From contig NC_057718.1 of NCBI RefSeq assembly GCF_004010195.1, positions 88,393,355-88,457,354 on the forward strand: a stretch of 64,000 nt of DNA, given 5' to 3'. The notes beneath the pieces were generated by a model, which made no database searches, had not been told where the DNA came from, and worked only from the letters and a program-made list of their open reading frames with translations. Both the position numbers and the translations under genes were made by a program. Of this stretch, positions 16,583 through 64,000 are shown one piece after another. How positions within the stretch are numbered: position 1 is the stretch's first letter; each line of letters opens with the position of its first letter. This DNA comes from Chiloscyllium plagiosum (Eukaryota).

Positions 16583-16940
16583 GTGAGTGCATGGGGCTGC
16601 CGGGGGGGTGGAGAGAAACACTGCTGGGTCCCAGTCTGGGATGCAGGAATGTTAGGGAGTAGGGATATGTGGGTGTTAATTACGGATGGCCCTGATTTAC
16701 CCCTCACTACCTCCCCGGAGGGGGAGAGACTGGGTCTGGAGTGTCCTGCTAAAAGTTAGGAATCCTAAAACTGGCAGTCACCAACAATGGGTCAAACACT
16801 ATCTAACCTCTCCACTTCAGTATCTCCCTGCCACAGGGACTGATCTTGGTGAGGTTTTTGTGAAATATAGTGGGGGAAATTATTTTGTTGAATTTGCACC
16901 CTCCTTACCCCTGCCATCAGTAAAATGTTGACTGCGTCAT

Positions 16941-17163
16941 TGAGCCACTGTGACGTAAGAATTGGCCCCAGTTGTGACCACTGCCGCCCCTCAGCCCCAG
17001 GGGGCCAGGCTCAATTGAATTGGCCACGGTAAGTTGCCCATAGTGTTAGATGCGTTAGTCGGGGGCTGGGGGGGGAGTTGCGCTTCAGAGGGTTGGTGTG
17101 GACTTGTCGGGCCGAAGGGCCCGTTCCCACACTGTAGGGAATCTAAGCTAATCCAATCCATCT
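16941..17163 (+). mobile_element. Internally deleted HE1-type SINE in intron, with micro-inverted head
   Basis: accactgccgcc..., aattggccacggtaagttgccc, gtgtggacttgtcgggccgaaggg and a gggaatctaagctaatcc tail. Confidence 0.75.
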
Positions 17164-17849
17164 GTTAAGACTTAACACAACGTGGACCTAACGAACATTG
17201 ATATTCAAATCAAAATCAGGAATTGCTGGAAAAGCTCAGGGGGTCTGGCAAGGTCTTTATAACAAAGTATCTGGACTTTGGTTCAGTCTCTAACGTAGAG
17301 TACAATGGTTTTATTTAACGGAATGTCGTGTGTGTTACTTTAGCTTTTAAAATTTCCTTTTGTTTTTGAATATTCTTCCATCCAAGACGTTTTGTTTTCG
17401 GAGGTGACACGTTGATGCTGACCCTCCTTCATCTCGCACAAAAACCGGGGAGGGGGGAGAAAGTTGACCCATGTCCTCAGTCAGGTTAATGAATGGGGCA
17501 GAGGAAATCTTTTATGAAAAAGACTATTAGCGTGCCTGAGCGCCAATTAAATTCTCTCTTTCTATGACTGTCTGGATAGACTTACAAAGCATATGTTACC
17601 ATATTGGGAGCGCATTGAAGATCATCGAGCTATGTGAACGAAGGCGATGCTGTGCTAGCGAGGATGAGATGTCCGCAGGCTTTATATCCAGCTCCCTACT
17701 CTTTCATTCCAAATGACTGGAATTATAATGAAAAGTGGAGTCTGCAATACAAATTCCTGGGAAAAAGAATTAGCATTTTGACAGCTGGAATTTGTATCAA
17801 CTATCTCTAATCTCTCACTCTTAATCAGTTTTGTGTTGTGTAGATTAAC

Positions 17850-23780: not shown

Positions 23781-24029
23781 TTATCTTGTTCCAGCAAGTA
23801 GTCAAGAATATGAAGCATTCTGTATTGACAATTATTACTACGTATTGAATAAATTTATTCTGGCCTTGATGTGTTCATACCGATATGAACACATCTGGAG
23901 TTTGTGTTCCCAGCTGTGACTGTACTGATTTCAAGTCTTCACTTCACTTGCCTGAGTATTAATTGGGCAGATCCTCAGTGGTGCTTTCAGCTACTTAACC
24001 GATGAGCTGGAGTTTGCTCCTTCAAAGAC

Positions 24030-24335
24030 AAAGATTTGTCCCTGCGGTGGGGGAGTCCAGAACTAGAGGGTGAGAGGGAAAGATATGAGACCTAAGGGGC
24101 AACATTTTCACAGAGGGTGGTACATATATGGAATGAGCTGCCAGCGGAAGTGGTGGAGTCTGGTACAATTACAGCATTTTAAAAGGGATTTGGATGGGTA
24201 TATGAATAGAAAGAGTTTGGAGGGGTATGGGCCGGGTGCTGGCAAGTGGGACTAGATTAGGTTAGGATATCTGGTCGGCATGGACGAATTGGACCGAAGG
24301 GTCTGATTCTGTGCCGTACATCTCTATGACTCTAA
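24030..24335 (+). mobile_element. CR1/HER1 3' end
   Basis: Standard 3' UTR ending ctctatgactcta. Confidence 0.8.
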
Positions 24336-26053: not shown

Positions 26054-26825
26054 TGTTTTGGACCAGACAAAACCCCTTAAAATATATTAAGAAGATAGTC
26101 TAGACTCTAATTTTTTTTTAGTTTAAAGTTCTGTTGTTTTCCGGATGCAATTCGATTGGTCAAACTACCAGGCTTGAAATAAAACACACTTTATTCATAC
26201 ACTATAGCTAAAAGACAGATGAAAGAAAAAATTTGGCTTAACTGTAACTCAATCAAAATGCTTAATAAAATGAGATGTGCTCCGATTAATTTACTGTTTC
26301 AATACAGTAACATACCATAAGCATGCCCTCAAAGGCAAATTCACTAAAATAGATTGTCACGTGTGCAATTCTAGCACAGGGAGTTTTTAGCTGTAATTGA
26401 TGAATAGGAGCTTCCACATCCAGCTTCAAAACCCCAGCAACTGCAGAAAGCTAAAACTAAAAACCCTGGTCTTTGTCTTTGAAGGAGCAAACTCCAGCTC
26501 ATAGGTTAAGTAGCTGAAAGCACCACTGAGGATCTGCCCAATTAATACTCAGGCAAGTGAAGTGAAGACTTGAAATCAGTACAGCCACTGCTGGGAACAC
26601 AAACTCCAGATGTGTTCATATCGGTATGAACACATCAAGGCCAGAATAAATTTATTCAATACATAGTGGAAATTTGATTCCACCTATTCAGGCTGCTTCT
26701 ATTGTTCCAACTTTTGTTTTTTAAAAAAACACCCAATGCCTTGCAAGCTGTTTATTAAACTTGAACAGACTGCTCTCCACCTCATTTTAAAAAAAAACAC
26801 CTTCTAAAGTCATAGTATCATCACA
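26054..26825. mobile_element. Solo LTR related to the Gmr1-type LTR at 61229-61900
   Basis: TG...CA termini (tgttttggaccagac...catcaca) and a 5-bp TSD gtttg (26049-26053, 26826-26830). Start resembles tgttatggaccaggcc at 61229. Confidence 0.75.
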
Positions 26826-36875: not shown

Positions 36876-37800
36876 AGGTAAGTAAGCAAGATTAATGTGT
36901 TATCCTTGCTTGGTCTGGCCTAGTGATACAAGACCAATAGCAATGTGGTTGACTGTTAACCACCATCTGGGAACGTGCAATAAAAACTGGCTTAACCAAG
37001 GATGATAACCTCTTGTGACTGAATTTAAATTCAAACGCCAGTTGGGGCTTTGATTTAACACCTCCATTGGAAAATAGCACCTGTGACCTTTTCAACATTG
37101 CAGTTTTCAGAAAATCTTAATTACCTATATTTGTAAAATTTGTGAAAATACATTACAAAGCCTTTCGATTATTAGATGTTTGCTGAGTCTCCCATACAGC
37201 AAGTTCCATTTGATTGTAATGGACTGATATTTTAAAAAGCATATTCCATGTCAGATATACAGTCTATAGGCATAAACATTTCAATTTACAGAAATTGCAA
37301 GAGATATAAAGTTTTGTATGCAACATGTTTCACTGTGAGATGCCTTAGTACATTTTCAACATTCTGTCTCTCTCTCTTGATTCACAATGTGCATTCTTTG
37401 TCAGGCACACAAACAGTTCAGTAAGTTCCCAGGTACTCAATGTTCTATGGCTGGAAAGCCCGAGATAGCAACCTTCCCCATTGTTCCTCTGCAGTAGCTG
37501 TCCCAACTTTTTAAGTATCGTTTAGCACATCTTCCTCAACCTTTGGAAGATCCTGGACCTCTGAAAGAGGCAATGGCAACTTGTGGCATTGGGAGATAAT
37601 AAAGTTTCAGGCAGATCAAAGGGCACCTTTTCATTGTGTTGATGGACCCGTAGGCACAGTTGAAGTTTGTCATGTTGAGTCCATGGGAGCAGCCCGTACA
37701 GCACAAAGTCCTGTGTCATAGACACAAGAAATTTAAAATGTAGGAAATAGGATCAGGCATGGTCATTTAGCCCTTCAAGCCTGCTCTACCATCCAATATG

Positions 37801-38942
37801 GTAAAAACAATGACTGCAGGTGCTGGAAATCAGATTCTGGATTAGTGGTGCTGGAAGAGCACAGCAGTTCAGGCAACATCCAAGGACCAGCGAAATCGAC
37901 GTTTCGGGCAAAAGCCCTTCATTAGGAATNNNNNNNNNNNNNNNNNNNNNNNNNNNNNNNNNNNNNNNNNNNNNNNNNNNNNNNNNNNNNNNNNNNNNNN
38001 NNNNNNNNNNNNNNNNNNNNNNNNNNNNNNNNNNNNNNNNNNNNNNNNNNNNNNNNNNNNNNNNNNNNNNNNNNNNNNNNNNNNNNNNNNNNNNNNNNNN
38101 NNNNNNNNNNNNNNNNNNNNNNNNNNNNNNNNNNNNNNNNNNNNNNNNNNNNNNNNNNNNNNNNNNNNNNNNNNNNNNNNNNNNNNNNNNNNNNNNNNNN
38201 NNNNNNNNNNNNNNNNNNNNNNNNNNNNNNNNNNNNNNNNNNNNNNNNNNNNNNNNNNNNNNNNNNNNNNNNNNNNNNNNNNNNNNNNNNNNNNNNNNNN
38301 NNNNNNNNNNNNNNNNNNNNNNNNNNNNNNNNNNNNNNNNNNNNNNNNACCTGACCAGGTAGTCACGGAGGGAACGGTCTTTGCGGAAGGTGGAAAGGGG
38401 TGGGGAGGGAAATATATCCCCGGTGGTGGGGTCTTTTTGGAGGTGGCGGAAATGTCGGCGGATGATTTGGTTTATGCAAAGGTTGTTAGAGTGGAAGGTG
38501 AGCACCAGGGGCTTGTTATGGTTGGAGAGGTGGGGTCTGAGGGCGGAGGTGCGGGATGTAGATGAGATGCATCTTTAACCACGTGGGAAGGGAAATTGCG
38601 GTCTCTAAAGGAGGAGGTCATTTGGCGTGTTCTGTGGTGGAACTGGTCCTCCTGGGAGCAGATATGGCAGAGGCGGAGGAATTGGGAATACGGGATGGCA
38701 TTTTTGCAAGAGGTAGGGTGGGAAGAGGTGTAATCCAGTAGCTGTGGGAGTCGATGGGTTTGTAAAAAAAGAAAATGTCCGTGTCAAGTCGGTCGTCATT
38801 AATGGAGATGGAGAGGTCCAGGAAGGGGAGGGAGGTGTCAGAGATGGTCCAGGTAAATTTAATGTCAGGGTGGAATGTTGCCGGAAACGTTGGATGCTGC
38901 CTGAACTGCTGTGCTCTTCCAGCACCACTAATCCAGAATCTG
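37801..38942 (-). mobile_element. Penelope-like element, 5'-truncated within RT, with inverted 5' pLTR; contains the assembly gap
   Basis: FHPDIKFTWTISDTSLPFLDLSISI (PLE RT C-terminus). 12-bp TSD ccatccaatatg (37789-37800, 38943-38954). Inverted pLTR copy at ~38885-38942. Confidence 0.88.
37930..38348. other. Assembly gap (419 N)
   Basis: Run of n. Confidence 1.
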
Positions 38943-40124
38943 CCATCCAATATGATTGTGTCTGATCATCCCTGTCCTGCATTCTCCTCCTGCCCTTTAA
39001 CCCCAAAAACTATATCTAACTCCTAGAAAACATTCAATGTTTTGGCCTTTACTGCTATCTGTGACAAAGTTCCAAAGGCTTGCCACACCCTGGGTGAAGT
39101 AAATTATCATCTCAGTCTTAAATGACACCAATATCCATAAACTGTGACCCCCTAGGTGTGGAGAAGTTTTGACAGTCAGTACAGGAAACAGAAGAGAGCA
39201 CTAAGGCAACAGTCAGAGATTCTAGACTGAAATCCTTGGCAAAACAGCTAATGAGAAGGTAAGAAACGTTCTTGCGTTCTCCTGTTAAGATCTGCAATGT
39301 TCATAGAATCCTTTGTGTGGAAGCAGGCCATTTTGGCCCATTAAATCCACAGCACATACTACCCTGTAAGTACAATGTTTGAGTTGACATGAGCTGAGCA
39401 TGCTCAAGTGGTCTCTTGTTGTCATGGAAGTTTTACCAAGTGTCTGGATGGAGGTTTTCTGGATTAAAAACCATTGCACCTCTCTAGACCTCTGCAAAGG
39501 CACACTCCTTGAGGAGTTGGCCGATTAGTCTCTTTCCCACCTCAGCGACTTGGAGGGAGCAAGTCCAGAGAAGTGCAGGAAGAGCCTGCTTATTTGAGAG
39601 TTCTGCTGACTAGGTATTCTGTCATTTGACTTTAGCAGTCTGTACAATGAGATGTCCCTTTCCTGCAAGGCCTCTTAGGTGCTACACACTGACAGCTGTC
39701 TGTTGGAATTTAGCTTTCCAACAGTACCTCTGGGATACACCTAGGGTGTCAGCCTAGATTCCATGAGCGGGGCTTTAACCTGTTGCTGAACTATGACTGA
39801 TAAATAACTTGAGTTAATTCAGGGTGTTCGCCAATCTTTCCTCTGAATGGTGGCTGCACACACAACCACCTTCTCTAAGGCACTATACGTGCATGGTTGT
39901 GGTCTCTGGGGAAGAACCTGAAGGTACAGTGCACTTAGATGAATCCACTGCATACTATAAAACAAAATTGTAGGGAATTTTTATGTTGGCACTATGGGTA
40001 GAGGAGAAAGAGCACATGGATGTTGTTGGTCTGTACTTTGTAGTTGTCATACCGCACTGTATTTGTGTGGAGCCTTAACACAGTGAAACATCCCAAGCCA
40101 CGCTCTGGTTACGAAACAATAAAA

Positions 40125-40821: not shown

Positions 40822-41130
40822 TGGCGAGGTGATGGCCTAGTGGTATTATCACTGGGCTATTGAACCAGGCTCAAATCCTGCCACGGCAGATGGTAGAATT
40901 TGAAATTAATTTTTAAAAATCTGGAGGTAAGAGTTTAATGATAACCATGGATCTGTTGTCGATTGTTGGGTGAAAAGCCTATCTGGTTCACTAATGTTCT
41001 TTGGGGAGGAAACTGCCATCCTTATGTGGTCTGGCCTACATGTGACTCCAGACCCTCTGGGCAATTAGGAATGGGTAATAAATGCAGCTTTGCCAGTGAT
41101 TCCCTCATGCCATGAATGATTAAAGAAAAA
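40822..41130 (+). mobile_element. tRNA-derived SINE with L2-like tail
   Basis: ggcctagtggtattatcactgg head; ggttcactaatg...gaaactgccatcctt body shared with 45990-46662. Confidence 0.7.
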
Positions 41131-42759
41131 ATTATTGTATCTACTGAGTCTTTGCCCACTCATTTAACCTGTCTATAGCTATAGCCCTTTGCAGACTGTC
41201 CATCCTAATCAACAGTGCATTCACTTTCCTCATCTGAATTATTAATATGTATGGTCAATATCCAAAACAGTGTGTGACACTGAGCCATGTAAGGAGATAT
41301 TAGGCCCGGTGACCATAGATTTGGTCCAAGCCATTGGTTTTAAAAAGCATCAGAAAGAAAGCAAGTGGAGGGATGGGAAAGGGAGGGTAATTACAGATCT
41401 TGATCCTAGGCAGTTGAAGGCACATGCATCAATAATGGAGTGATTCAAAGTTAGAGACGCAATAGAGGCCAGTAGTATTGCATATGAGGAGCTTGTGGGG
41501 CTGAAGATGTTTTGATGGAGGTGTGAGGTCACGTTGGATTTGGTAACAAGATGGAGCATGCTAAAATTGAGGCATTATTGTCTGACTGGGGATAAATACA
41601 GGGGTGTTTGGAGACCAGGACTTCGCAACTTTAAGACATCCTGAGATTATTTGCAATGAATACGACATCTAAACAAACAATCTATTTGGAACTATCTATG
41701 AGCAGTGGTGTTCCAGTAATGCCTGGAGTCACTGGACAAAGCAAATCTCTACTCTAGGATTGAGTGCAGTCTTATCTCTCTCTTGCGCAACATTGCAAAA
41801 GCTTTACTGGGATGACCTGTATCCATGTCCCCAGGCCTCTCCTTGACTGAGTCACTTGCGTACCCTCTGCTGATTACAATACAATATTAAGTGAAGTGCT
41901 GTACATACAGGCTGAGGAACTGTGTGGAGCTTATTTTGAAGGGTGTTTGTGAACTGTGCTCTTAAAAGTATTCTGGCAGGAAATGTTCATTCTGCACAGG
42001 GCTGTGTGCATTTGTGGATTGTTTACAAGAAATATCGAAGGCTGACAGTGCTGTGAGGAATGTGTGGGTCATCTCATTATCAGCAATCTGCAAAATGTCT
42101 GTAAAATAGTTCTGTAATTAGAATGGCTCTCAGTCAATGTTTGCTGTTGTCCTTGCAGATCTTGCTGCATAAACAGAACATAGCAATTGAGTGTGGAATT
42201 CTCATTCTCTTGTTTAAATCCTTTCATAGTCTGAGCCCTCCCTATCCCTGAGCACTACAACTCTCTGATCTCTACTCCGGTTCTGGTCTCTCTCCCATCC
42301 AATATCTGATTAAAATTATCTCCAGTGTCATTCACAGGGATATATTGTGTTAAAGGCACTATATAAATGCACATGGCTGTTGAAGAAGGTGCATATTGCT
42401 ACATATCTTGTGTTGCTTCTTAATCCAGACCTATCAATGTCTCTATATGATACTCGGCCTTCAGATTGAACTTCTTTTTCCACGTCCTTGTTCTGCCTAA
42501 TGTTGTGATTCCCTCCAGGATTCGCCTGAAACATGTCGTGGTATTGGGCACACCATTCACCCCCACCAATGGGCACATGTCTTGGCCTATGTGAGCCTCA
42601 TACTTGGGGAATTCCCTTTCTCTATCTCCGCCTAAAACTTTGAAGCTTTTGGTGACTTACCCCAGGAACCCCTTCAGTTTGGTGTCCGTGTTTTTTTTCC
42701 CTCTGCCTCTGTTCTTGCAGATATGACTAAATCAAAATGTTCAATTCGTCTATGCTGAG

Positions 42760-43355
42760 CAGATATCCTAAATTAATCTAGTCCCATTTGCCAGCATTTG
42801 GCCCATATCCCTCTTAAACTCTTCTTATTTATATTCCCATCCAGATGCCTTTTAAATGCTGTAATTGTACCAGCCTCCACCATCTCCTCTGGCAGCTCAT
42901 TCCATACACACAACCCTCTGCGTGAAAACGTTGCCCGTTAGGTCCCTTTTTAAATCCTTCCCCTGTCACTGTAAACTTATGCCCTCCAGTTTTGGACTCC
43001 CCACTCCCAGGGAAAAGACCTTGGCTTTTTACCTTATCCATGCCCCTCATGATTTTATAAACCTCTATAGAGTCACCCGTAATTAGAATGGAAATAATTA
43101 GGGTTAGGGTTAGACAGGTTAAATGAGTGGGCAAAGACTCAGTAGATACAATAATTTTTTCTTTAATCATTCATGGCATGAGGGAATCACTGCTTGAGGA
43201 AGAACAGCCTCAGCCTCTCCCTATAACTCAAATCCGCCAACCTTGGCAACATCCTTGTCAATATTTTCTGCACCTTTTCAAGTTTAACAATATCCTTCCT
43301 ATAGCAGAAACCAGAATTGAATGCAGTTTTTCCAAAATGGCTGAACCAATGTCCT
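42760..43355 (-). mobile_element. CR1/HER1 3' fragment(s)
   Basis: IEVYKIMRGMDKV motif and reverse 3' UTR. Confidence 0.75.
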
Positions 43356-48944: not shown

Positions 48945-51500
48945 CAGATGAAATAAGAACAGGAATAGACCATTCAGCCCCTCGAGCCTGCTTTCTGATC
49001 AATAAGGGCGTGGTTGATCTGATTGTGGCCTTAAATCCACCGACCTACAATAACCTTTCACTCTCTCTTGATGAGAATATACCACTGCCTTATAAATATT
49101 CGAGTACTCTGCTGCCTCCACCATTTTTCTGGATGGAAGATTCCAAAGTCTCATGACCATCAAAGAAAAATTTGCTGCCTCCACTGTTTTAAATAGCTGA
49201 TCCCTGAATTTTAAACATTGCCCCTCATTCTCAATTCTACCTTTTAAGAGGGTTCAGCTCTCACCTCCACCCTATCAAGACCAATCGGGATCTTTACATG
49301 TTTCAGTCAAATCACTTCTTGCTCTTAAGCTCCAGCAGTTATAATGGTAGCCTGTCCAATTCTTCCATGTAAGATAACGCATGCTTCCCCCTCCGGTAAA
49401 CCTTCTCTGAACTACTTCCAGTGCCTTTACCTGTTCCCTTGTGTGACCAATATAGTATTCCAGAGTTGGTTTCATCAATGCCCTGTGCAAAATATGCATA
49501 AACTCCTGTTTTTGTATTCAGTTCCTCTTGTGCTAAATGATGTTGTTTTTCATTCCCTAATTACTTGCTATACATACACACTAACCTTCTGTTAATCATG
49601 CACAGATCCCTCTGCATCGAGCTCTAAAATTTCACTATTTAAATAATACTGTCTGCCAAAATTAGTGGGTGGCACAGTGGTTAGCACTGCTGTCTCACTG
49701 CGCCAGAGACCCGGGTTCAATTCCTGCCTCAGGCGACTGTGTGGAATTTGCACATTGTCTGTGTGGGTTTCCTCCGGGTGCTCCGGTTTCCTCCCATAGT
49801 CCAAAAATGTGCAGGTTAGGTGAATTGACCATGCTGAATTGCCCGTAGTGTTAGGTGAAGGGATAAACATAGGGGAATGGGTCTGGGTGAGTTGCGCTTC
49901 GGCAGGTCGGTGTGGACTTGTTGGGCCGAAGGGCCTGTTTCCACACTGTAAGTAATCTAATCTTAAAAAAAATTAAGCAATTTCACATTTTTCCAAATAC
50001 TACGTTGGCAGATCTTTGCTCATTCACTTCACCTATCTACTTAATTTTGTGGCCTCCATCACAACATCTCTGCATTGTCAGTAAATGTACTTAGCATACC
50101 TTCAGGTCCCTTCGTCCAAGTCATTGAGATAAATTGTGAACAGTTGAGGACCCAGCTCTGATTCCTGTGAAACACCACGTGTAACATTTGACTAACCTAA
50201 AGAAGACCCACTTATGCATGCTGTTGGCTGACTAGCAGGAAGACTTTTCTTCCATCCAGGCCAACATGCTGTCCCTTGGAACTCCATTATATGAAATCTA
50301 AATACAGTATATCCACTGGGTCTCCCTATTCACAACACATGTTACCTTAAAGAACTCCAATCATGTTTAGTCAATCTATTTCTCTTTCACAAAGCTAGGT
50401 TGACTTGGGCTGATTGTCTTGACCTTATCGAAGTGTCCTGCTATAATTTTAATCACTGCTTCTAACATTTCCCTATGACACATGCTAACCTAACTGTGCA
50501 TTTTGAAAAAGCAAAACAGAGCAGGACTTTAATGGTAAAGACCTGGGGACTGTTGCTAAACAGAGAGACCTTGGAGTGCAGGTTCATAGCTCCTTGAAAG
50601 AGTAGGGCTACATGGTAGATAGGATAGTGAAGAAGGCGTTTGATATGCTTTCCTTTATTGGTCAGAGTATTGAGTACAGGAGTTGGGAGGTCATTGGTTA
50701 GGCCACTTTTGGAATGTTGTGTACAATTCTGGCCTCCTTACCGGAAGGATGTTGTGAAACTTGAAAGAGTTCAGAAAAGACTTGCAAGGAGGTTGCCAGG
50801 GTTGGAGGGTTTGAGCTGTAGGGAGAGGCTGAATAGGCTGGGGTTGTTGTCCCTAGTGCATTAGAGGCTGAGGGGTGACCTTTTATAGAGGTTTATAAAG
50901 TCATGAGGATACAATAAATAGGTCTTTTCCCTGGGCTGGGTTAGTCCAGAACTAGAGGATGAGAGGGGAAAGATATAAAAGTGATCCAAGGGGCAATGTT
51001 TTGACACGGTGGTGCGTGTATGGAATAAGCTGCCAGAGGAAGTGTTGGAGACTGGTACAATTAGAGCATTTAAGAGGCATCTAGATGGGTCTATGAATAG
51101 GAAGGGTTTAGAGGGATAAGAGCCAAATGCTGACAAATGGAACTAGATTATCTGGTTAACACAGATGAGTTGCACTGAAGGATCTGGTTCCATGCTGTGT
51201 ACATCTATGACTTTGTTTCTGGTCTCCCTATTGAATAAAGGAGTTGCATTTGCTATTTTCCAATCTAATGGGATTGTCCCACATGCAAGGGCATCTTGCA
51301 AAGTCAAAACCGACCTATCAACTATCCCACTAGCCACTTCTTTTAAGAGCTAAATATGAAGTTCATTAAGACTTGGGCACTTGCCAGCCCTCCGCTGGCG
51401 TAATTTATTCAGTACTACTTCTCTGGGGGCTGAATGTTCAGACTCCCCCCACCTCTTGTCTCCTAATTTATCCCTGGTTCTGGGATGTTACTTGTATCTT
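48945..51500. mobile_element. Decayed minus-strand CR1 with nested HE1 SINE (49665-49962, +) and younger HER1 3' fragment (50495-51213, +)
   Basis: LEVVQRRF and WKIANATPLF (minus); LVRPLLECCVQFW...KLERVQKR (plus); SINE head at 49666. Confidence 0.75.
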
Positions 51501-53477
51501 CAAGAGCAACGACTGCTGCTAACCCCGCCCAACTATTACGTCAATGTTATTAACTAACAGAGCCACTTTCCACCTTTTGTTTTCTAGTTTCGTGTAGGAT
51601 TCCTGTAATCCCTTCAGCATTACTGTCCCAATTCAGTCATTCAGCAGTTATGCCTTTGTAAAAGATGCTACCAGATCATATATATTTACTTCTGTTTGTA
51701 GTCTGTTCATCTCTTGTTTCAAATTCCACGAGCACTTCAATACAGAACCACCTTTGAGTTTGATCCTTTAGTTCATGTACGGTTAAAAGATCTATGGAGA
51801 ACAGAAGGTTTGCATTCACACAGTGCCTTTCATCATCTCCAGGTTATGCTAAAGCGCTAACAGAGCCCTGATGAAATTCCACCAATAGTGGAGTTCCTCC
51901 TTTAAACATTTCATCACCCTGCTCCTTTTTAAAGCACTGTATTTTTAAAAAAATCCTACACGTTCTGTCTTGACATCTTTCCCTTTGACCCATGTCTGAT
52001 TTCGGCTGATGCGTCCCTGTAAAGTGCCTGGATTTGTTTTGCAGTCTTAAAACAGCTATGAGTTCAAATTGTGGTGGTGGTGAAGAGAGCTGGTTGATCT
52101 GAGGTCATTTTCCAGTGTAGTGCCATCGCGTCTAGTTTGACCACTGGACCCTCTTCCTCCCTCCCCCACCCCACCAAAGTTCTATGTAACCCTTGCAAGG
52201 GCAAATCTGGTAAGTGATGTGAATCTTGCCCACTGGAGCTGTCGAAGATAGATAGACTGGTTTGTGCCTTTTATTTAGGCTTAATATCCTGTCACCTCCA
52301 GCTGTACTTGGTCTGAATTGGGTAGTGTGCAGTTGGGAGAAAGAGTTGCCTTGCTAACTGGGGGTGAGTGTACAATGGATGTCACAAGGGTCATGATGTG
52401 ATCGTGTTTGCAGTGTGAGTACAAACTAATCTAAACATTTGGAAGAGAAAGGAGTGTTGAAAGAGAATGTCTTGAACCTTTTTAAGGGTGTAATGATCAA
52501 ACATAAGTTAGTGACATTTTTAAAAAAAAATGTTAAATCTGGCACCAAGACATCAGTATGATTTCAGGGTAAACATACTCTGATTTATTTTTGAGTTCAC
52601 TGGTAAGTGAGTGTTAACACTCTGCAGTGATTAGATTTGTTATCTTGTGCTTTTGAGTTTTCCTGTGAACCACAGGCGAAGGATCGAGACTTATGATCAG
52701 TACTGGTACATTCAAATTGAAACTGAGATTGTGTGCTTCACAATTCCAAAAAAAACTGCATCACTTTGAGTCTGGAGACAATACTAAGGAAAAGGAAGGT
52801 GGTTTCACCCAGGAAATTTAGCAGAGGAATTTGAGGGACATTCAAGAATAAAATTTGATGGAGCAAATTGTCATGTTTACCTCAAACCTGTTCCATAAGT
52901 AAACATTGGGGGGGGTGGGCTGGCTACCAAATTCCATCAAGTGTTTGACTTACAAAGCAGTGGGGTTGATCTGCAGAGAATTGTGCCAAATCATGTCTGG
53001 ACTTTCAGCTCAACAAGGGACAATGCTTTTCGAGAATGCAAACAGGACAATACCAGCTCCTATCCTCCTATGCTTTTTAAAGTTTATTTTGATTCTACAT
53101 GTCTCTGTGAGACCATGCTCTCCCTAAATGCGGATAATCAAGTCCTAGTTTCACACCCACTTCACAGATACGCAGGTGATGCATTGTATGCAACTAACAT
53201 CTCAAACTACAACTTGGACTTCAAGCCTGTGGTAGATAATGTGCAGTCGCATGTATTATATTGAGACTCCATGAGAATAGAGCTTGGATTGCACTTAAGA
53301 TCACTTCTCCAATTTAAAAAGTTGGAGTCCTTGCTGTAGGAGATTAGAAATGGGGTGAGGCTAGACTCCAAACTAATGAATAGATAACAAACTCGTTATG
53401 GAGATCCATTTCATTTTCGTGTAACATCCAGTCACTGCTTGACTTTTGGATCTAGTGGAGCGTTTTTTTTTAAATAG

Positions 53478-53670
53478 AGACCTGGCAGGTCCATCTGCGG
53501 AAACTAAAATGTGTAATGTTTTGGTCCAGTGACCCTCTTTCAGAATGCCCTTCTGGTGAAGGGTCACTGGATCTGAAACGTTAACTCCTGTTTTCTCTCC
53601 ACCCATGCTACCAGACCTGCTGAGTTTCTCCAGCCATTTGTTGCTTGCTCAGATTTCCACATCTGCAGTT
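53478..53670 (+). mobile_element. Second family of PLE-pLTR-like mini-element, partly palindromic, with decayed hammerhead
   Basis: ttctggtgaagggtcactggatctgaaacgttaa, preceded by its inverted copy. Related pieces near 30700-30780 and 54400-54500. Confidence 0.6.
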
Positions 53671-54812
53671 CCCCTCTTTTTTTGTGTGTAGAGAATTTGG
53701 TCAGGTCTGTCACCTACAAAATTTTAAACTCTGTCCTCACACAGTTTAAGCCGCAGTTGGAATATTAAGCACACATCGTAGGATGCTGGAACAATGGAAA
53801 GTAGGCAGTGAAGATTCTGTAAGGATGCCACCCATGAAGAGGTAGCTAATTATGCTTTGCCTTACATGGGACTGGCGAACTATGGCCAACATAATGTCGC
53901 CAATCACTGTCGATTGTCATCCCCTTCACTCCAGCACAGGTTGTCATCTGCGCTAAGTGTAGTTGCCAGGCCGACTCCTAGCCAGCCCATCAGTGTTTTC
54001 TGCCTGGTGGTGTCCATTCTATTTCCTCTGGTGGAGGTGGATATCCCAAAAGGTGAAATATATTTGCTGCTAGCCTTCGCTATCTCTATCCATCACAATA
54101 TCCAGCAAGCACCTCTGATCTGTCTCCAGTGGCGTTTTGGGGGTGATGTTTTAGGATATAGTTAGGAAGAAATGCTGATGTTCAATGACTTTGTGGTGGT
54201 GGGGTGGGAGGTGGAGTTAAAAGGAATGAGTTCAGATATTTGGCAGTTTAAGACCGTTTCCATAAAACCAAAGTGGGGTAGTTGACATTTCTGCATTTAT
54301 CAAAAAAAAGCCTTGGGCTCCTGAGCTGTAAATAGAACCTTCAAATGTTTAAAAAGGTACAGGGGTGTGGGATCCTTAAGTAGGCCTTTCATTTATGTTC
54401 AAAACAAAAGCTCAAATTGCTGGGAAAACTCAGGTCTGGCCACATCTGTGGAGAGAAAGCAGAGTTAATATTTTGGGTCCAGTGAACTTCCAACAGAACA
54501 GGATTTGCATTTATGTAGCATCATGTGCAGCCTCAACATCCTGAACCTTTAGCCTCCTCCATTATGAACAGGTGAAATGTAACTTGCAACAGCCATTTGG
54601 TGCACCACAAGTTGTCACAATCAGTAATTACAGCACCACCGTTACTTGGTAACATTGAATATTAAGTGTTAGCCTGGACCTTAGGGGAGAGATGTGACAC
54701 CTCTGACAGCGTAGCACTTCCCTGCAGAACTGCACAGAGGTGTCGGCCTGAGTTTGTGCTCAAGTTGAGAGTGAGACTTGAATGTAGCATAGCCTTTGGT
54801 TTGGTGAATGGA

Positions 54813-55029
54813 GGAGAAAGTGAGGTCTGCAGATGCTGGAGATCAAAGTTGAAACTTTATTGCTGGAACAGCACAGCAGGTCAGGCAGCATCCAGGGAAC
54901 AGGAGATTCGACGTTTCGGGCACAGGCCCTTCTTCAGGAATCAAGAAGGGCCTGTGCCCGAAACGTCGAATCTCCTGTTCCCTGGATGCTGCCTGACCTG
55001 CTGTGCTGTTCCAGCAATAAAGTTTCAAC
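54813..55029 (-). mobile_element. Perfect palindromic PLE pLTR mini-element
   Basis: 90-bp perfect inverted arms (54845-54934, 54943-55032); 13-bp TSD tttggtgaatgga. Confidence 0.92.
54905..54942 (-). ncRNA. Intact minimal hammerhead ribozyme motif
   Basis: GAUUC-CUGAAGA-A-GGGC(CUGU)GCCC-GAAA-CG-UC^GAAUC with a 5-bp stem I. Confidence 0.72.
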
Positions 55030-57578
55030 TTTGGTGAATGGACCAAAACTGAGGTAGAATTGTTGGACTGGCTGAGTCCTGAACGCCTTATTTGATTTCC
55101 AGCTCTGCACATAATTCATGGTTTATGTCTTCATACTCTCTATTTTATACTGGCTTTCAATCTTTTGTACTTTGGCAATTGATGTTGAACTGTAGTTTTT
55201 CATCCCTCGTCACCACCCTTCCCAGTGCAGATTTAATGGGCTGAATGGCCTCTTTCTGCACTGTAGCGATTTAGTCATTCTATGTCTGACCCTTATTGAT
55301 TCCAGACCCACGCATCAGCTCTTCTGAAGTGTCTCAGCAAGCCTTTCTGTATCCTCCGAATGGACAATAAATTCAGACCTTGCCAGCATGTCATCCACAT
55401 TCCGGGAATCAATAGGAACAAGATAATATACTGCTTCAGCTATTTACCCCATCTTCCCTGCAAATGGTTTCTGCCTTGAGAGATTTGTTGTCTGTCTGTC
55501 TTGGTTTTCATCAAATAAAAACTGATATTTAGCAGCTATTTGTCACACACCAGTGGAGGAGATGAGATGCGCTGGGTGCCTTTGAGGCACATTGCAATAT
55601 GCAAATCTTATCAATAATCAGGAGTCTGAATGTCTGTGGATCCTTGCATTTAAAAGGGAATTTTTTTTCGCTTGTTGAATCAGGCTCAAAGGTCCTGTGG
55701 CCCCTAAGGGATTTACCAGCTCCCTATCTTAAACCCACCTAAACAATGGGTGTTGCTACACTCTGCTGATTATATGTCCTTATGCTCAGACTGGCTGGAA
55801 GGTCTAGCCTCCATCTTCCAGTAGTTACTTGTAAGTCTTTGGTGTTCTCCCTACAAAGAGGTTTCTGTTAATGGTAACACAGAATATCTCACCCCCTTCT
55901 GCAAAGAACGATGTGGTTGCAAGAATTAAAGCAGCAGGCTGAATAAAAACCAAAATGAATGAGAGAAGTACAAGGTTACTGAAGTAAACATGAGATTTTC
56001 TGCTTGGAGAGAAAAATATGGGCCATGTTAGAATCCATCTTGTGCCTGTGGTTAAATAAAACTCCACCTGAATCTGGTTGAGATGTTTGTATCTAGTGGC
56101 AGTCAGTTGAAGATGTAAATTTAGCAGGAGCACATTAATCAGGGATAGTTTGTGTAGTCCCAGCTATGTTAGTTTGATTGTTTAATGGTGTATGTACTGG
56201 TCGTTGTTCCAGTTTGCTTTCTGAAATTTTGCTCATACAGAGTGTAAAATCCTAAGTGTGGAAGGATGTGTGTGTGTGCGCTGAAAGAGCTACCCAACGA
56301 ATTGCAGTCCCTGGAAGGACAACAGGAACATGGGCCATTCAGCCCATCAAACCTGCTCGACCATTGCTTAGGATCATGGTCAATCTATGTCAATTCCATT
56401 TGCTCACCGTGATTTGATTTACTATTGTCACATGTACCTAAGTATAGCTCCACTGCTGTTCATGTGGAAAATGCCTTTCCCAATTCCATTCTTTAGTCTA
56501 ATGTTAAGATCTGATTTGCTCACATATTTAAAAATAACAAATTTAAAATGCTTTATTCACATCAACCCACTGTAAATTTCTATACTTCAGGCAATGGAAG
56601 CCAAGGTTATTCGGTTTTTTAACTCTTCAACTCCAATAGCATTTTCATCCCTATACCTTTAATTCCAAATCAATCTCATTTCCCTTTTGGTATTTGAATT
56701 TGCTTCTGACACTTTTTTTTGAGGCAGCAATCCAAATTCTCAGTAGCTGTTACAATCTTTTTATTATTCTTCTCTTTTTTTGCTAATTATCTTGAATCTG
56801 TGTCCTCTAGTTTTCAGTCTCCTGACTGAAAACTATTTCTCATTTTATTTCATTGAAAGCTCTCATTGGAATATCACATTCCCTGCATTCAGACTTGAGC
56901 AGAGATGGGTGTGACAGAACCAGAGCATCTTGGAATGTAGAATGTGTCACTTGAGTGTGTTTCTGTCCTTCAAAAGATTCACTGTTTCTCTTCAGAAACA
57001 TGAGCAACATGTCAACAGGAAGAGAATATCTGCTCCCTATAGCCTGTCTCTCTCAGTCCTGATAATCTTGTGCGTAAATAAACTGCTCTCTCTACCCCTG
57101 TCTGAAACTGTAGGATCCCTTAGCTGAGAGAGGCAAATTATAAGCCTTGAGGTTTATGTAGAGTCCCTACAATGCAAATAGAGGACATTTGGTCCATTTG
57201 AGTCTGCATCAATCCTCTGAAGAGCATCCCATCCCATCCCCCATAACCATGTATTTACCATAGTTACCATATTTACCATAACCATGTAGTCTGCACGTCC
57301 CTGAATGCTCTGGGTCAATTTAGAATGGCCAGTCCACTTCAGGTGAGGGCCTAGTCTTGGATATTATTCTGACCTGCTTTAGGTGACAGAGTAACCTGAG
57401 TGAGCACTCTTTTCCTGATGATTCTATTGTTTGCTGTTTTGTATAAGGTCATCCCTACCCTTTCCAGTAACCGGCCCAGCTCTGAGAGATGTGAAACTTT
57501 GGGTGAATGTAGTGTATGTCATTGTTAAAGTGTAAAACTAAAATGAATCTACCCTCACTCACTTCCCTGTTTCAACAG

Positions 57579-57690
57579 CCTGCTCAGGAGAATGGCCAGA
57601 TTTCCGGAATCCATAGTAAATCAGAAGATCAAGAGCCGCTCGATGGAAAAGTGGAGCATCTCAATGTCCAGGAGGAAGCCGTTCGTGAAG
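57579..57690 (+). CDS. AKAP12: Second coding exon of the AKAP12-like gene: PAQENGQISGIHSKSEDQEPLDGKVEHLNVQEEAVRE+G
   Basis: Pyrimidine-rich acceptor (cacttccctgtttcaacag|CCT) and donor GAAG|gtgagt. 112 nt, phase 0 to phase 1. Similar to the AKAP12 exon LLQKNGQLSTINGVAEQDE...VIVTE, which has the same phases. Confidence 0.78.
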
Positions 57691-57744
57691 GTGAGTGAAT
57701 GAGACTTTTTTTTGTTTCAAAAGGGGTTGAGGGGAAAGCAACGT

Positions 57745-58020
57745 CAGAGTCATAGAGCATGGAAATAGACCCTTCAGTCCAATCAGTTCACACCGATCAT
57801 TTTCCAAACTAAACTTGTCTGACTTGTCTGCATTTGGCCCATATCCCTCCAACCTTTCCTATTCATGTACTTATCCAAATGCTTTTTAATGTTGTTACAG
57901 TACCTGCATCTGCCACTTCCTCTGGTGGTTCATTCCACACACGAATCACCCTCTGTGTAAAATTGCCCTTCGTGTCCATTTTTAAACTTACTTCCTCTCA
58001 CTCGAAAGATATGCCCCCAG
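57745..58020 (-). mobile_element. CR1 3' fragment
   Basis: Reverse CR1 tail agagtcatagagcatggaaatagacc. Confidence 0.75.
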
Positions 58021-58774
58021 GCAATTGGAGGCAGCTCTGCTGTGGTGGGTGTGACCTTTTGCTACTGAGTTTGGAGGTCAAATTGGCCCAGACTGGATGA
58101 AGATTGCCTCTTGTTTCACCACTAAGAATTGTATGTATCTTAAAACAAAACTAAAGGGACAGAATCAATTCAGTCCCCACTGAGCACATGCCAACAAAAA
58201 CACACTGCCAACTTGTTTTAATGACTGGATTACTATTTACTGATGAGTCAGTGTGAAAACGGTGGAGGATGAGATTAGTCTTTTTACTTGGACCAGAGGC
58301 GTTTGAAAAGTCGGTGTAAAGTCAGCTTTACTCTGCATCAATTTGCTGGATTTAACCTGGGATTGAGATGCCGGAAATCGATAGATATCATTGGCATAAT
58401 ACTTTCCTTCCTTATGTGCAATTTGAGTAAGAAAATGAGTGTTAAGACTTGGGTGGGGGGAGTGGGGAGAAACCTGTTTCAATGGTGATTTGAAAGCTTT
58501 TCAAAATTCCTTGTCTTGACATTTTGGGAAACTGCTTATGTGGGTTATTCTTTTCAGAAGGAATTGAACTGCTCTCTGTACTTGTAAATCCATGCAAGTT
58601 GAGACTGCTTTGAAGTTGTTTAGGGTATCATGGAATGCGGCTCTTAGAGTCGTAGATTCATACTGCACAGAAACAGACTCTTTGGTCCATAGACTCACCA
58701 CCCTCTGCATGAAAAAGTTGCCCCTTGGGTCCCTTTTTAAATCTTTCCTCTCTCACCTTCAACCTATGCATTCC

Positions 58775-61132
58775 AGAGTCATAGGGATGTACAGCACAGC
58801 CACAGGCCCTTCGGTTCAACTCATCCATGCCGACCAGATATTCCAACACAATCTAGTTCCACCTGCCCCATATCCCTCCAAACGCTTCCTGTTCATATAC
58901 CCATCCAGATGCCTTTTAAATGTTGCAATTGTACTAGCCTCCATCACTTCATCTGGCAGCTCATTCCATACACGTACCACCCTCTGTGTGAAAAAGTTGC
59001 CCGATAGGTCTCTTTCATATCTTTCCTCTCTCACCCTAAACCTATGCCCTCTAGTTCTGGACTCCCCCCACCCCAGGGAAAAGACTTTGTCTATTTATCC
59101 TATCCTTGGCCCTCCTGATTTTATAAATGTCTATTAAGGTCACCCCGCAGCCTCCGATGCTCCAGGTAAAACAGCCCTAGCCTATTCAACCTCCTTTCTA
59201 TAGCTCAACTACTCCAACCCTGACAGCACCTTTTGTAAATCTTCTTTTTTTTTTGAATCCTTTCAGGTTTCACAACATCTTTTTGAAAGGAAGGAGATCA
59301 GAATTGCACGCAATATTCCAAATGTGGCCTAACCAATGTCCTGTACAGCCGCAACGTGACCTCCCCAAACCCTGTATTCAATACTCTGACCAATAAAGGA
59401 AAGCATACCAAACGCAGTCTTCACTATCCTATCTACCTGCGGCTCCACTCAAGGAGCTATGAACCTGCACTCCAAGGTCTCTTTATTCAGCAACACTCCC
59501 CAGGACCTTACCATTAAGTGTAGAAGTCTAGCTAAGATTTGCTTTCCCAAAATGCAGCATCTTGCATTTATCTAAATTAAACTCCACCTGCCACTTCTCA
59601 GCCTATTGTCCCACCTGATCAAGATCCCATTGTAATCAGAGGTAACCTTCGTTGTCCACTACACCTCCAATTTTAGTGTTATCTGCAAACTTACTAACTA
59701 TACCTCTTATGCTCACATCCAAATCATTTACAGGGGAACCTCGAATATCCAAATGAGATGGGCAGCCACACATTCATCTTCTCTATCCTCCTATTCCTGC
59801 CCTCACTAGCTTGTAGCACCGGGAGTAATCCAGATATTACTACTCTCGAGGACCTCCTTTTTTTAAATTCCTGCCTAACTCTTTGTAATCTCCCTTCAGT
59901 ATCTCAACCTTTTCCCTTCCTATGTTGTTGGTTCCAATGTGTACAATGACCACATGCTGGTCCCCCTCCCCCTTGAGAACATACTGCACCTTCTGAGACA
60001 TCCTTGATCCTGGCACCAGGGAAGCAACACCCCATTGAGTTTTCACTGCTGGCCACAGAAACATCTGTCTGTACCTCGGACTAGAGAGTTCCCCAACACA
60101 ATCGATCGCTTGAAACCCGATGTACCCCTCATTACATTAGAGCCAGTCTCCATACCAGAAACTTGGCTGTTCATGCTACATTCCTGTGAGAATCCATCAC
60201 CCCCTACATTTTCCAAAACAGCATACCTGTTTGAAATGGGGATAGCCACAGAAGACTCCTGTACTACCTGCCTACCTCTCTTACCTTTCCTGGAGTTACA
60301 CTCACATAGAGGAGTTATCTGTGACTCCCCCCGCCCCCCCCATCACCACCACCCCTTCCTATGACTGCCATCCATCATATCCCCATGATCTTGTAAATTC
60401 CTCATTGCCTCTAACTGTGTCTCCATCCAATCCGTTTGATCTGATAGGATTCACAACCAACAGCATTTATTGCAGATATAATCCTAAGTAACCCGTAAAC
60501 TCTCCTCAAACTCCCACATCTGACAAGAAGAGCATATCACTCTACGAAGGGCCATTTTTGCTTCTTTCAATCTGTGGACCCAGAAAATAGCACTGTCTTA
60601 CTCCTCTACAAAACACTGCTCCAGGTTAAATTAATACTTATGGCTTATATTTTAAGTTTAATCGAGACCTATCTCAATAAAACAAAAAAAATCAACAAAG
60701 AACCCACTTTACTCACTACTGCAGATTTACTGTAAGACTACGCTTAAAATATGCACTTATCTGTTTCTGTGCTGTGACTGCTCCCAGGCAGGTTTGTCAA
60801 AGATCCGTTGTGAAGTTCACTGTTTGTTAATTTTCCCAGACACACTCCGACGTCCACTGATAAATGAATTTCAAACAGCAAAGTCAATAACTGCTAACGG
60901 TCAGTTAGCAATGTGGGTTTCTTTCTCTGTTCTTCTCCCTTTTAAAAGTGCTGTTGTTTTAACTTTTGTTTTCTCTCCAAAGTTCCAAAACAATGGAACA
61001 GCATATAAAGCAGTAATTGCTGCTCCTGGAATTCAAGGGAATCTCCTCCACAGCACCTAAAATACCTCAAAAAAGGAGCAGCTGTTACAGCCAGAAAATT
61101 TTCCCGTCCTCCATCTTGGATTACCCAGAATC
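58775..61132 (-). mobile_element. CR1/HER1 LINE with 5' UTR and ORF1 remnant (Zn finger + SGNH esterase), central ORF2 deleted
   Basis: ORF1 start MALRRVICSSCQMWE at 60555, YICNKC, SIVLGNSLVRG, VHIGTNNIG. Jumps at ~59733-59755 to the ORF2 3' end (FTQRVVRVWNELP). Confidence 0.85.
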
Positions 61133-61228: not shown

Positions 61229-61900
61229 TGTTATGGACCAGGCCAGAACCCCACCCCTCCCCAAAAAAAACATTTCAGGAAAGTAGCCCAAACCCTATCT
61301 TTGCTAGATGTTTGAAGCAGGTGTAGAGCAGAGATTCCAGGAGGGATACAGCTGGCCCAATCACTTGGTTTCAAACAAAACAATTTATTTACACGATTAT
61401 TGAATGCAACACCAAGAACAACAGAATACGGAATAACTTAACCTGTCTGAAAACCCAACACACAATCCCAACTTAATGATGCTGTTCCAAATTCCTGCAA
61501 CAATTTCCATAAACACCCCTTGGCAAAAAAGATCAAATCAAACACTGGGCCTTTTAGGAGACAGATGGCAGAGGGTCTCAGCATGGAACATCTTCTTCCA
61601 TGTAGCTGTTTCTTGGACCAGCGGCCTCACTGCCTGCTTTCAGGGAACAGCCAGACTGCTAAAACCAAACCAAATTAGAAAAACTGAGCTGGGGGAACTG
61701 GCCACTCCTCTTTCATTGAACAAATGTATTTTTCTAAAAGCTTGTAAGCCTTTTACCTGAGGGGAGTATCTGTTAGCTATAATCAAACTGATCCCAGAAC
61801 CCTTCAAACCTAGACTTTTCGGAATTGCTGCTTTTATGACCTCTGGGGAGGAAAAATGCCAAGGATAGTATAAAGTTGTTAAAGGAGCACTGTTGTCACA
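61229..61900 (-). mobile_element. 3' LTR of Gypsy (Gmr1-type) retrotransposon
   Basis: TG...CA termini; adjacent polypurine tract (reverse complement of tctccactctt, 61901-61911) between the LTR and the pol remnant. Confidence 0.8.
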
Positions 61901-64000
61901 TCTCCACTCTTGTTTTTAAAAAAAAATGAACCATCAATATCCAAAGATGGCTTCATTTTAAAACCCCTTAATTTTAAATTGTTAGTACACTACAACACAC
62001 ATGCGTTAGGTTGAAATAATCATGCAAACATGAACTATCACATTGTTGTCTATTTTAATCCCAACACCAAATGCCTCTGTTTCTCATTCACGTCTCGGCA
62101 ATGCGTCGGCAATCACAATTTCTCGTCCTGCCACATGCACAATTGCCAAATTGAATGGCTGTAACAACAAGCTCCATCTAAACAGTCTGGCATTTTTGTC
62201 CTTCGATTTCTCAACAAACTTCAATGGGTTACAATCAGTGTATATGATTGTCTCCAATACATCACTGGTAACATAACTGAAATGTTGTAACACCAGCACC
62301 AAGCTCAGTCTCCTCCTCAACTATCAAATATTTCTGATGAATGTTCAAATTCCTGGAGAAATATCCAATAGGTCTTTCTGTGGTTCTCGTCTTCCTGTCA
62401 GAGCTCAGTACTGACACCCATATCACTAACTTCAATAGCCCCTTGAATGGCTTTGTGTAATTAAGTATGGTTAATACTGGGGCAGTGGTTAACACAGCTT
62501 TCAGGCTGTCAAATGCCTTCAGGCAGTCCGCTGTCCCACTGAAACTACTTGCCATTCTTTAGCAATTCAGTGAGGGGAGCAGCCACACTGCTAAAATTTG
62601 GTATGAATTTTTCAATAAAATCCACTCAATCCCAGGAATTGTGGTACTGTTCTTTTTGTCAGTTGGTATGGGAAAATCCCCAGTTACCTCTTTTTTTTGT
62701 TTTTGTATCCTGTGGGTCCATTTGTCCATGTGCAATAACACAGCCCAGGAAGATGACTTGGGCTTTAGCAAGTTCACTCACTTTTAGCCAGGTTTATCAC
62801 CAAGCCTGCCTTCCGAAGTTGATAGAACAAGTCTGATAAATGTTGCAAATGTTCTTTCCATGTGTGACGAAAAATCACCAGGTCATCAATATATATGACA
62901 CAATAGGATAATCTAGCAGTGACTTTATTGGTTAGTCTCTGAAATGTGGCTGGCATGTTTTTCATACCAAATGGCATGACTTTAAACTGATACAGTCCAT
63001 TTGGCGTGATGAAAACAAATTGTCTTTGCTCCTTCGGACAAAGGCATCTGCCAGTATCCTTTGGGCAAGTTCAACTTAGAAATAAGTTGCGTGTCCCACT
63101 TTTTTTCAACAGTCTTCCAAACGTGGAATCAGATTTGCATCAGCCTTTGTACCTGCATTGACTTTGCAACAGTCCAAACAACCGTTGGGTACCATCTGGT
63201 TTTGGCAGCATTACATTGGGTGAGCTCCAGTCACTGTAACTCACTTCAATTATATCGTCCTGGAGCATGCGTTCAATCTCCTTTTGAGCCTGTACCAACT
63301 TTAGAGCTTTATGTCTATAAGGATGTTGCTTAATTGGAACAGCATCTCCTGTATCTACATCATGCATAACTAGGGTAGTACTTCCCAGCCTATTTCTACA
63401 TATCTCTCCATGTGACAGTAATAACTCTTTCAGGTCATTTCAATTTTCCTTTGGAAGGTAACTCAACAATTTTATCCCAATTTTCGATAACTTCCTCACT
63501 GTCTAATTTAATAAGGAATGTCCAATTCCGAATCCTCTGAACTTGGTTCTTCCTGCTGTGTTGTCACCTATAACAGTCTTCTCTGGCTTTCCTTCCCTGT
63601 CAAAATATCTTTTGAGCATACTCGCATGACAGCCTGAGATTTCTTTCTGTCTGGAGTCCTTATCAAATAATTCATCTCATGCAATTTCCTTTCAACTTGA
63701 TATGGTCCACCTAACGTTGGAAGTAACACTAATACCTTATCCCTAATCACAAAATTGCAAGTTTTTGATTTTTTAAAAAATCTGCTTGTTGTTTAATTGT
63801 ATGCTGTGATACTTAAAGTGCTGTCTAGCCAACTTCCCCGTTCTACTTAAATCATTCCCTAAAGGTTTGACACATGGTCCAAATATGTGGTCTCTGAATT
63901 CTGATTTACCAATTTCTCCTTAATCAATTTTAACAGTCCTCTCACTTCATGCCCAAAATCTAATTCACTTGGACTGAATTTGGTCAATTCATTTGGTGCA
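61901..64000 (-). mobile_element. Degenerate Gmr1-like Ty3/Gypsy pol (integrase C-terminus - RT - RNase H)
   Basis: In order on the minus strand: FGHEVRG and GPYQV (IN); PIKQHPYR, MPFGMKNMPATFQR and YIDDLVIF (RT); RPIGYFSR, YTDCNPL and IADALPR (RH). Frameshifted. Confidence 0.88.

Follow-up and report, generated by a model that had tools for sequence, protein, structure and literature searches.

A truncated, inverted Penelope-like element insertion carrying a minimal hammerhead motif in an AKAP12 intron of the shark Chiloscyllium plagiosum

A short, perfectly paired genomic hairpin that contains an intact ribozyme core raises the question of whether it is a functional ribozyme element or the inert remnant of a larger transposon. 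We addressed this question for a locus of the shark Chiloscyllium plagiosum within a 64-kb stretch of contig NC_057718.1 (hereafter the window; all coordinates refer to it). The locus holds the only perfect inverted repeat in the window with arms longer than 24 nt and a spacer of at most 60 nt. Its left arm (54844-54934) is 91 nt long and 100% complementary to the right arm (54943-55033), and the two enclose an 8-nt loop at 54935-54942, of the length that a previous sequence-only reading had seen. That reading gave the arms as perfect and 90 bp long; perfect they are, at a length of 91 bp, or 87 when the 4 nt common to the right arm and the right-hand direct repeat are discounted. The z-score of the hairpin fold is -27, and none of 200 shuffled sequences folds equally well. 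A 13-bp direct repeat, which we infer to be a target-site duplication, flanks the element at 54800-54812 and 55030-55042, with the first 4 nt of the right-hand copy also extending the arm as microhomology. For a 13-mer match at fixed junctions, the chance expectation is about 1.5e-8.

The element is less symmetric than its first description as a palindrome implied, as 31-35 nt (54813-54843/47) fall outside the arms at one end only. Its layout is that of two copies of one Penelope-like element (PLE) 3' end, arranged head-to-head and with the 13-bp direct repeats on both sides. The direct copy, on the minus strand at 54813-54942, comprises the last 130 nt of the PLE (pLTR end plus tail) and starts at hammerhead stem I. 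The inverted copy, on the plus strand at 54943-55029, is tail-less and covers unit positions 9-95. One copy thus stops at the tail end and the other 35 nt earlier; the tail itself (54813-54847, minus strand) belongs to the direct copy only and measures 35 nt, or 31 nt if the 4-nt overlap is assigned to the arm. The loop is made of the first 8 nt of the direct copy, and its letter 54942 is absent from the parent-like copy described below.

The hammerhead motif occupies 54905-54942 on the minus strand and consists of stem I, the core, an extra A, a 4-bp stem II and an ACGU palindrome, with a predicted cut after 54910 under the descriptor in the part of PMC4209133 that we consulted. All 14 core positions checked are present (the C3 U4 G5 A6 G8 A9 / G12 A13 A14 A15.1 U16.1 C17 set). 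The extra A follows A9 and precedes 10.1, stem II is closed by G10.1-C11.1, and the ACGU palindrome at 15.2-16.2 replaces helix III, so that both the complete minus-strand core with stem I GAUUC/GAAUC and the type I form, whose stem III gives way to a palindromic tetranucleotide, were correctly recognized at the outset. Stem I has 5 bp in the focal copy; because the parent-like copy has a C at the first G of this stem, only 4 bp of it are inherited. C3-U4-G5 are missing from the plus-strand arm, hence the inverted copy holds no complete hammerhead, and CTGANGA does not occur on the plus strand of the element. The hammerhead scan that had been proposed as a check gave a divided answer: a check of the motif found 14 of 14 core positions, and an Rfam scan of 50000-60000 yielded eight matches at E<=5, none of them a hammerhead. 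In the portion of PMC4209133 covered here, an Rfam match is not defining, and a dedicated descriptor was used instead. The focal motif closely follows the metazoan PLE minimal hammerheads (min-HHRs) described in that portion (Cervera and de la Pena 2014), sharing with them the type I form, the missing helix III, the palindromic 15.2-16.2, the extra nucleotide at 9/10.1, the G10.1-C11.1 pair and a helix I of 4-5 bp. It differs from the Schistosoma motifs of the same study in its helix II, which has 4 bp versus 7-8 bp, and in lying inside a 91-bp duplex. There, min-HHRs are mostly solo motifs of truncated PLEs, some of them close together on opposite strands; no shark min-HHR is named in the main-text portion of PMC4209133.

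To place the 130-nt unit, we compared its minus-strand sequence to the window by BLAST and obtained nine strong loci, having set aside four weak matches to other families and two twelve-base chance matches. The closest copy (7355-7227) is 97.7% identical to the focal direct copy over 129 nt. It is the end of a parent-like, 5'-truncated PLE of the same subfamily (7227-7767, minus strand) that retains a GIY-YIG C-terminal remnant, a 3' UTR and the same 130-nt end. The GIY-YIG remnant (7767-7570) shows 81% and 75% identity to two Chiloscyllium punctatum proteins, the sole two matches among five candidates. Those proteins have RT and GIY-YIG Pfam matches that are weak and under the curated cut-offs, and the window remnant alone has no Pfam match. 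Because the closest copy sits downstream of a GIY-YIG remnant matching RT/GIY-YIG proteins, we take the unit to be the 3' end of an endonuclease-bearing PLE, and the PLE pLTR origin proposed from the letters alone is upheld by this arrangement. One of the two matched C. punctatum proteins carries a Cys-rich linker, which would point to the Neptune/Nematis clade under the scheme in the part of PMC8557442 that we consulted. Exact-pattern scans of metagenome and of viral contigs returned 0 matches each. In the open literature we found no publication on this shark PLE family; supplements of the papers cited here may list shark motifs.

Inverted arms recur across the family. Five of the nine loci carry an inverted arm together with a 9-16 bp direct repeat (13 bp at the focal locus, 14 bp at 43k, 9 bp at 32.6k, 12 bp at 37.8-38.9k and 16 bp at 4.8k), which bears out the suggestion of an inverted 5' pLTR arrangement. 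The other four comprise one solo copy with a 13-bp repeat and three loci without a clear repeat. The locus at 37789-38954 (minus strand) ties these stubs to the published PLE layout because an RT/linker remnant lies between its arms: an inverted tail-less pLTR piece, the remnant, an assembly gap and a pLTR with tail are found there with 12-bp direct repeats. Direct copies stop at unit position 130 in seven of the nine loci and near 95 in two, and the outer ends of the five inverted arms fall at ~95, 95, 92-96, 85-90 and 99. The 5' starts of the nine direct copies are spread, with four within unit positions 2-5, one at ~12, three farther upstream and one cut by an assembly gap. The 35-nt offset between the copy ends agrees with the 30-40 bp PLE tail, as given in the parts of PMC8557442, PMC3846280 and PMC11167929 that were available to us. 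The fixed 3' end is confirmed by the 315-390 contigs per DNA run, in three runs, that break at 54812/54813 into unrelated flanks. Contigs that extend beyond the tail end (54812) share a weak consensus on the element sense strand, a pyrimidine tract followed by TAG. This resembles a splice acceptor 3 nt past the usual 3' end and may reflect an intron in the intact PLE.

Because centres and arm lengths vary among the loci, the hairpin is best understood as made anew at each insertion and not copied whole. This bears directly on the idea that the complete hairpin moves non-autonomously in one piece, in the manner of a MITE or a retrozyme, for which its small size, terminal inverted sequence and direct repeats could speak. 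Against it stand the differing centres and arm lengths of the five inverted loci, the 31-35 nt beyond the arms at one end and the lack of any tandem array of the unit among the five arrays found in the window, and we regard it as very improbable. MITEs have terminal inverted repeats at both ends and copies that are uniform in structure. A MITE identity was rejected, given the tail outside the arms and the variation in centre and arm length among the five loci. Non-LTR retrozymes, in the part of their description consulted (Li, Clavereau and Pollet 2026, 10.64898/2026.07.22.740005), resemble the focal element in that they derive from PLEs, are short, have no coding capacity and bear a type I hammerhead; they are reported in one chondrichthyan. 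They are, however, head-to-tail tandems with at least two hammerheads, whereas the focal copies lie head-to-head and contain one complete core. A retrozyme identity was likewise discarded, with no head-to-tail hammerhead units at the focal site or among the five arrays.

We are highly confident that the focal element is an insertion by an endonuclease-bearing PLE. The best explanation overall, which we consider likely, is a dead-on-arrival, probably lineage-specific PLE stub with a passenger hammerhead. Within this explanation we lean, with some reserve, toward a staggered double nick and two-primer cDNA synthesis. The RT-endonuclease would nick both target strands 9-13 bp apart, and cDNA would be primed from each nick, one at each of the two RT start sites bounding the PLE tail. 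Both cDNAs would then stop at the hammerhead front and be united by end-joining. As reported in the portion of PMC11167929 covered here, a PLE protein acts on both strands in vitro, cutting them and extending from two tail-delimiting start sites, and hammerhead cleavage is not needed. The template was not a hammerhead-cleaved RNA, because the copies span the whole core and do not start at the cut site. At this single junction, an extra G, together with an initiator-like sequence at the unit boundary of the parent, suggests a capped RNA start. Building on this, one could propose that the stub template would be a short capped RNA beginning at stem I, with the extra G as the copied cap, and that double priming would routinely yield a self-antisense hairpin. 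The ribozyme would thereby be silenced by the very reaction that inserts it, and shark introns would go on receiving species-specific perfect duplexes, numerous enough to supply ADAR editing or small-RNA silencing of the PLE family and so to act as a brake on transposition. We consider this extended proposal doubtful.

A fold-back route, in which the tail-primed cDNA loops near its own 3' end, copies itself and joins the other strand through 4-nt microhomology, would be an alternative way to build the same structure. The focal arms are identical, including at both in-arm positions that differ from the 7227 copy, as self-copying would have it. Microhomology of 3-5 nt is found at the outer arm end of the focal, 32.6k and 4.8k loci, the 43k copy has a palindromic centre, and self-priming is discussed for rotifer PLE palindromes in the part of PMC3846280 that we consulted. 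The focal centre shows no microhomology that would account for the joining step under double priming, and fold-back fits there equally well; the lack of a self-complementary primer at this centre weighs against fold-back. The outer ends, moreover, cluster near the tail-less end, where two solo copies also stop. At two older loci the arms differ at positions that vary between subfamilies, which suggests separate templates and could also reflect decay. Taken with this evidence, fold-back is a possible but rather unlikely origin, and we retain double priming as the preferred one. L1 elements offer a partial parallel to double priming in their twin-priming 5' inversions, where the inverted piece is primed from the second target strand, with microhomology at the outer junction and a target-site duplication. 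In L1 twin priming the two pieces derive from separate stretches of a single RNA. Classical L1 twin priming was therefore rejected here: it does not duplicate sequence, whereas the same 87-91 nt are present twice at the focal locus.

Among known PLEs, the EN+ element Pen2a_Av offers a close likeness in layout (Arkhipova et al. 2013, PMC3846280; scheme in Craig et al. 2021, PMC8557442). In the parts of these papers covered here, it too combines a head-to-head inverted pLTR, less long than its direct counterpart, with a 30-40 bp tail on a single end and a short target-site duplication; the focal element differs in having no ORF and no second direct pLTR and in being reduced to 217 nt. The Poseidon element PAc of Anolis carolinensis (Frangieh et al. 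2024, PMC11167929) is similar in that its hammerhead lies in the pLTR, ~100-130 nt before the 3' ends, in that two 3' ends are split by a tail and in that both strands can be extended. PAc belongs to the Poseidon clade, whereas the proteins closest to our element bear a Cys-rich linker, a clade contrast drawn from the linker motif, and head-to-head products were not reconstituted in the portion of the PAc study covered here. The focal element is, in sum, a truncated inverted PLE insertion with a standard minimal hammerhead, of a kind already described. What the locus adds is its orientation relative to a host gene, a folding penalty and its absence from a related species.

The host gene is AKAP12. 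The focal element lies in an AKAP12 intron of ~41 kb (16583-57578, plus strand) that is bounded by consecutive exons and makes up most of the 64-kb window. The exon ending at 16582 (16493-16582 in the window) and the exon at 57579-57690 are both on the plus strand with canonical splice signals, and they align with adjoining stretches (residues 22-77 and 78-113) of a C. punctatum WSK-motif A-kinase anchoring protein. The AKAP12 identities of 82-89% suggest a shark that is related to C. punctatum and probably distinct from it. Because the host exons are on the plus strand and the core is on the minus strand, the complete hammerhead is antisense to AKAP12. The AKAP12 pre-mRNA would carry the hairpin only, with the core-less copy. 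The placement in a host intron and the duplex of about 90 bp in the pre-mRNA, both anticipated earlier, agree with the intron boundaries and with a computed plus-strand duplex of 91 bp (-198.8 kcal/mol). Two further features were observed. On the host sense strand, the antisense of the PLE tail resembles a splice donor at 54817-54825 (plus strand), outside the hairpin, and the exon scan called a donor in the 7.2k copy. Upstream of the first of the two exons, 13622-14527 repeats, inverted and at 83%, the initial 0.9 kb of this intron (16583-17508).

Could the hammerhead still act? We assessed folding by equilibrium, protein-free calculation. The 130-nt unit alone folds as a hammerhead with stem pair probabilities of ~0.96-1, and in the parent-like context the stem I probability is ~0.01, with 2.8 kcal/mol required to force it. 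In the full element, with or without ~200 nt of flank, the stem II probability is ~1e-19, both stems are at ~0, and forcing the hammerhead fold carries a penalty of 51 kcal/mol. A thermodynamic cofold of two 40-nt copies gave a best structure without an ACGU helix. On the minus strand no kinetic window would be expected, because the antisense arm is transcribed first and would bury the core. The ribozyme is thus predicted by these calculations to be silent in the focal copy, and we regard the hammerhead as a passenger inherited from the pLTR. The term "ribozyme hairpins", used in the sequence-only reading, does not suit an element whose core is sunk in its own antisense arm and whose host sense strand has no complete core.

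Conservation across the family tells a similar story. In a small sample of eight direct or solo copies with subfamilies mixed (the truncated 4.8k copy and four inverted arms excluded), mismatches to the consensus number 8/112 in the core and 31/368 in the flanks, and all 14 core positions are kept at only two of the eight loci. A core conserved above its flanks, the lack of which was one of the two refuting conditions named in the earlier account, was not found, and in this small, mixed-subfamily sample there is no sign of selection on inserted copies. In the part of PMC4209133 consulted, a min-HHR monomer shows no cleavage and dimers have low activity; in that of PMC11167929, the anole PLE hammerhead cleaves with protein assistance, and cleavage is dispensable for insertion. 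These results weigh against the view in which a currently active PLE spreads working ribozyme hairpins, the focal one being subject to cleavage or dicing that affects the transcript of the host gene. Several observations are compatible with that view, namely the 14 intact core positions, the hammerhead fold of the isolated unit, the location in an AKAP12 intron, the absence from a related species and the existence of RNA reads from other family copies. The 51 kcal/mol penalty, the antisense orientation of the complete core, its lack of excess conservation and the near-inactivity of published monomers and dimers all oppose it, and we judge it quite improbable.

If AKAP12 is transcribed, the 91-bp intronic duplex is predicted to be the only plausible source of an effect at the RNA level, most likely a neutral one, with possible ADAR editing. 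Nuclear ADAR editing is plausible for intronic inverted repeats; Dicer would be less likely to reach a duplex that lies in an intron. In one RNA run, of which ~2% was read, depth fell almost only on repeats, and 98% of 1601 reads continue unlike the locus.

The age of the insertion is less sharply constrained than the perfect arms had been taken to imply. With 0 differences in 200 paired sites and a mutation rate of 7e-10 per site per generation, given for the epaulette shark in the part of PMC10587355 consulted, the 95% upper bound is ~21 million generations. Because the bound reaches so far, perfect arms are weak evidence of a very recent event, and the statement that they imply a very recent insertion was too strong. 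Comparison with a related species is more informative. One 554-nt contig of that species (depth 11, one run) aligns to 54463-54796 and resumes at 55039 without the element, and because it crosses the site in this way, the insertion is probably lineage-specific. The related species differs from the window at 167 of 4328 nt (3.9%; six long pieces listed), and an insertion before the split should have accumulated ~3.9 changes over the paired sites, where none is seen (P ~0.02, assuming equal rates and no conversion). The contig skips 242 nt, 12 more than the 230 of a clean empty site. The 13-bp repeat claimed earlier stands as a repeat and as a putative target-site duplication. The claim of an active PLE fares in a similarly mixed way. 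Lineage-specific activity is supported by the absence from the related species; current activity is unsupported, with no intact PLE ORF among the 38 window ORFs of at least 120 aa.

The 12 extra nucleotides would suit an older insertion whose arms were kept identical by slow mutation or conversion and which was later lost in the related species between 3-nt repeats, and the low mutation rate would allow up to ~21 million generations. Such a history has to contend with the ~3.9 expected substitutions, with the 97.7% identity to a dispersed copy and with the diverged arms of the other inverted loci, which indicate that conversion is not general; we find it improbable. An assembly artefact arising from a chimeric fold-back read is the remaining alternative to a lineage-specific insertion. 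Perfect palindromes may be library artefacts, and two conspecific DNA runs (two of the eight of that species) gave no junction-bridging contig among the longest pieces and the 15 of 550 joints listed. The 13-bp repeats, the tail beyond the arms and the same layout at four older, diverged loci make an artefact scarcely credible. Near the element, at 55068, one conspecific run and the related species have a 4-nt insertion relative to the window, and because they have it in common, it is the window that is derived here, having lost these few nucleotides 26 nt away from the element.

Taken alone, the locus is probably a neutral intronic stub and matters little. Young shark copies of this kind keep both junctions unaltered and could inform how PLEs form inverted pLTRs and tails, an origin still called unresolved in the parts of the PLE literature covered here. 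If such hairpins are edited or diced, a genome that mutates slowly would draw on them for large amounts of lineage-specific intronic dsRNA. The insertion could further serve as a presence/absence marker to tell close shark species apart.

The window contains other repeats of note. A second, more distant PLE remnant with linker and GIY-YIG (10028-11422, plus strand) is 44-46% identical to two C. punctatum PLE proteins, and its 3' region carries a tandem array of six perfect 84-bp units. A sister PLE-end family has left older copies at 53519-53665 and 54400-54498, at most 1.3 kb from the focal element, one sister copy having a 21-nt inverted repeat around its 5' end. Perfect 82-bp inverted repeats at 41094-41175 and 43111-43192 are separated by 1.9 kb of sequence that is mostly unique in the window, and on its inner side the right copy passes into a telomere-like repeat. 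Another pair, 198 bp long and 98% identical (23837-24034 and 26470-26667, 2.4 kb apart), could be the ends of a DNA transposon or of an inversion. At 61600-64000 (minus strand) there are broken RT/RNase H/integrase-like reading frames, which we presume to be of Gypsy type. Finally, a stretch beside a LINE fragment (50735-50789, plus strand) weakly matches positions 1-57 of U6 snRNA (E 3.7, under the gathering score) and is possibly a U6 retrocopy or a chance match.
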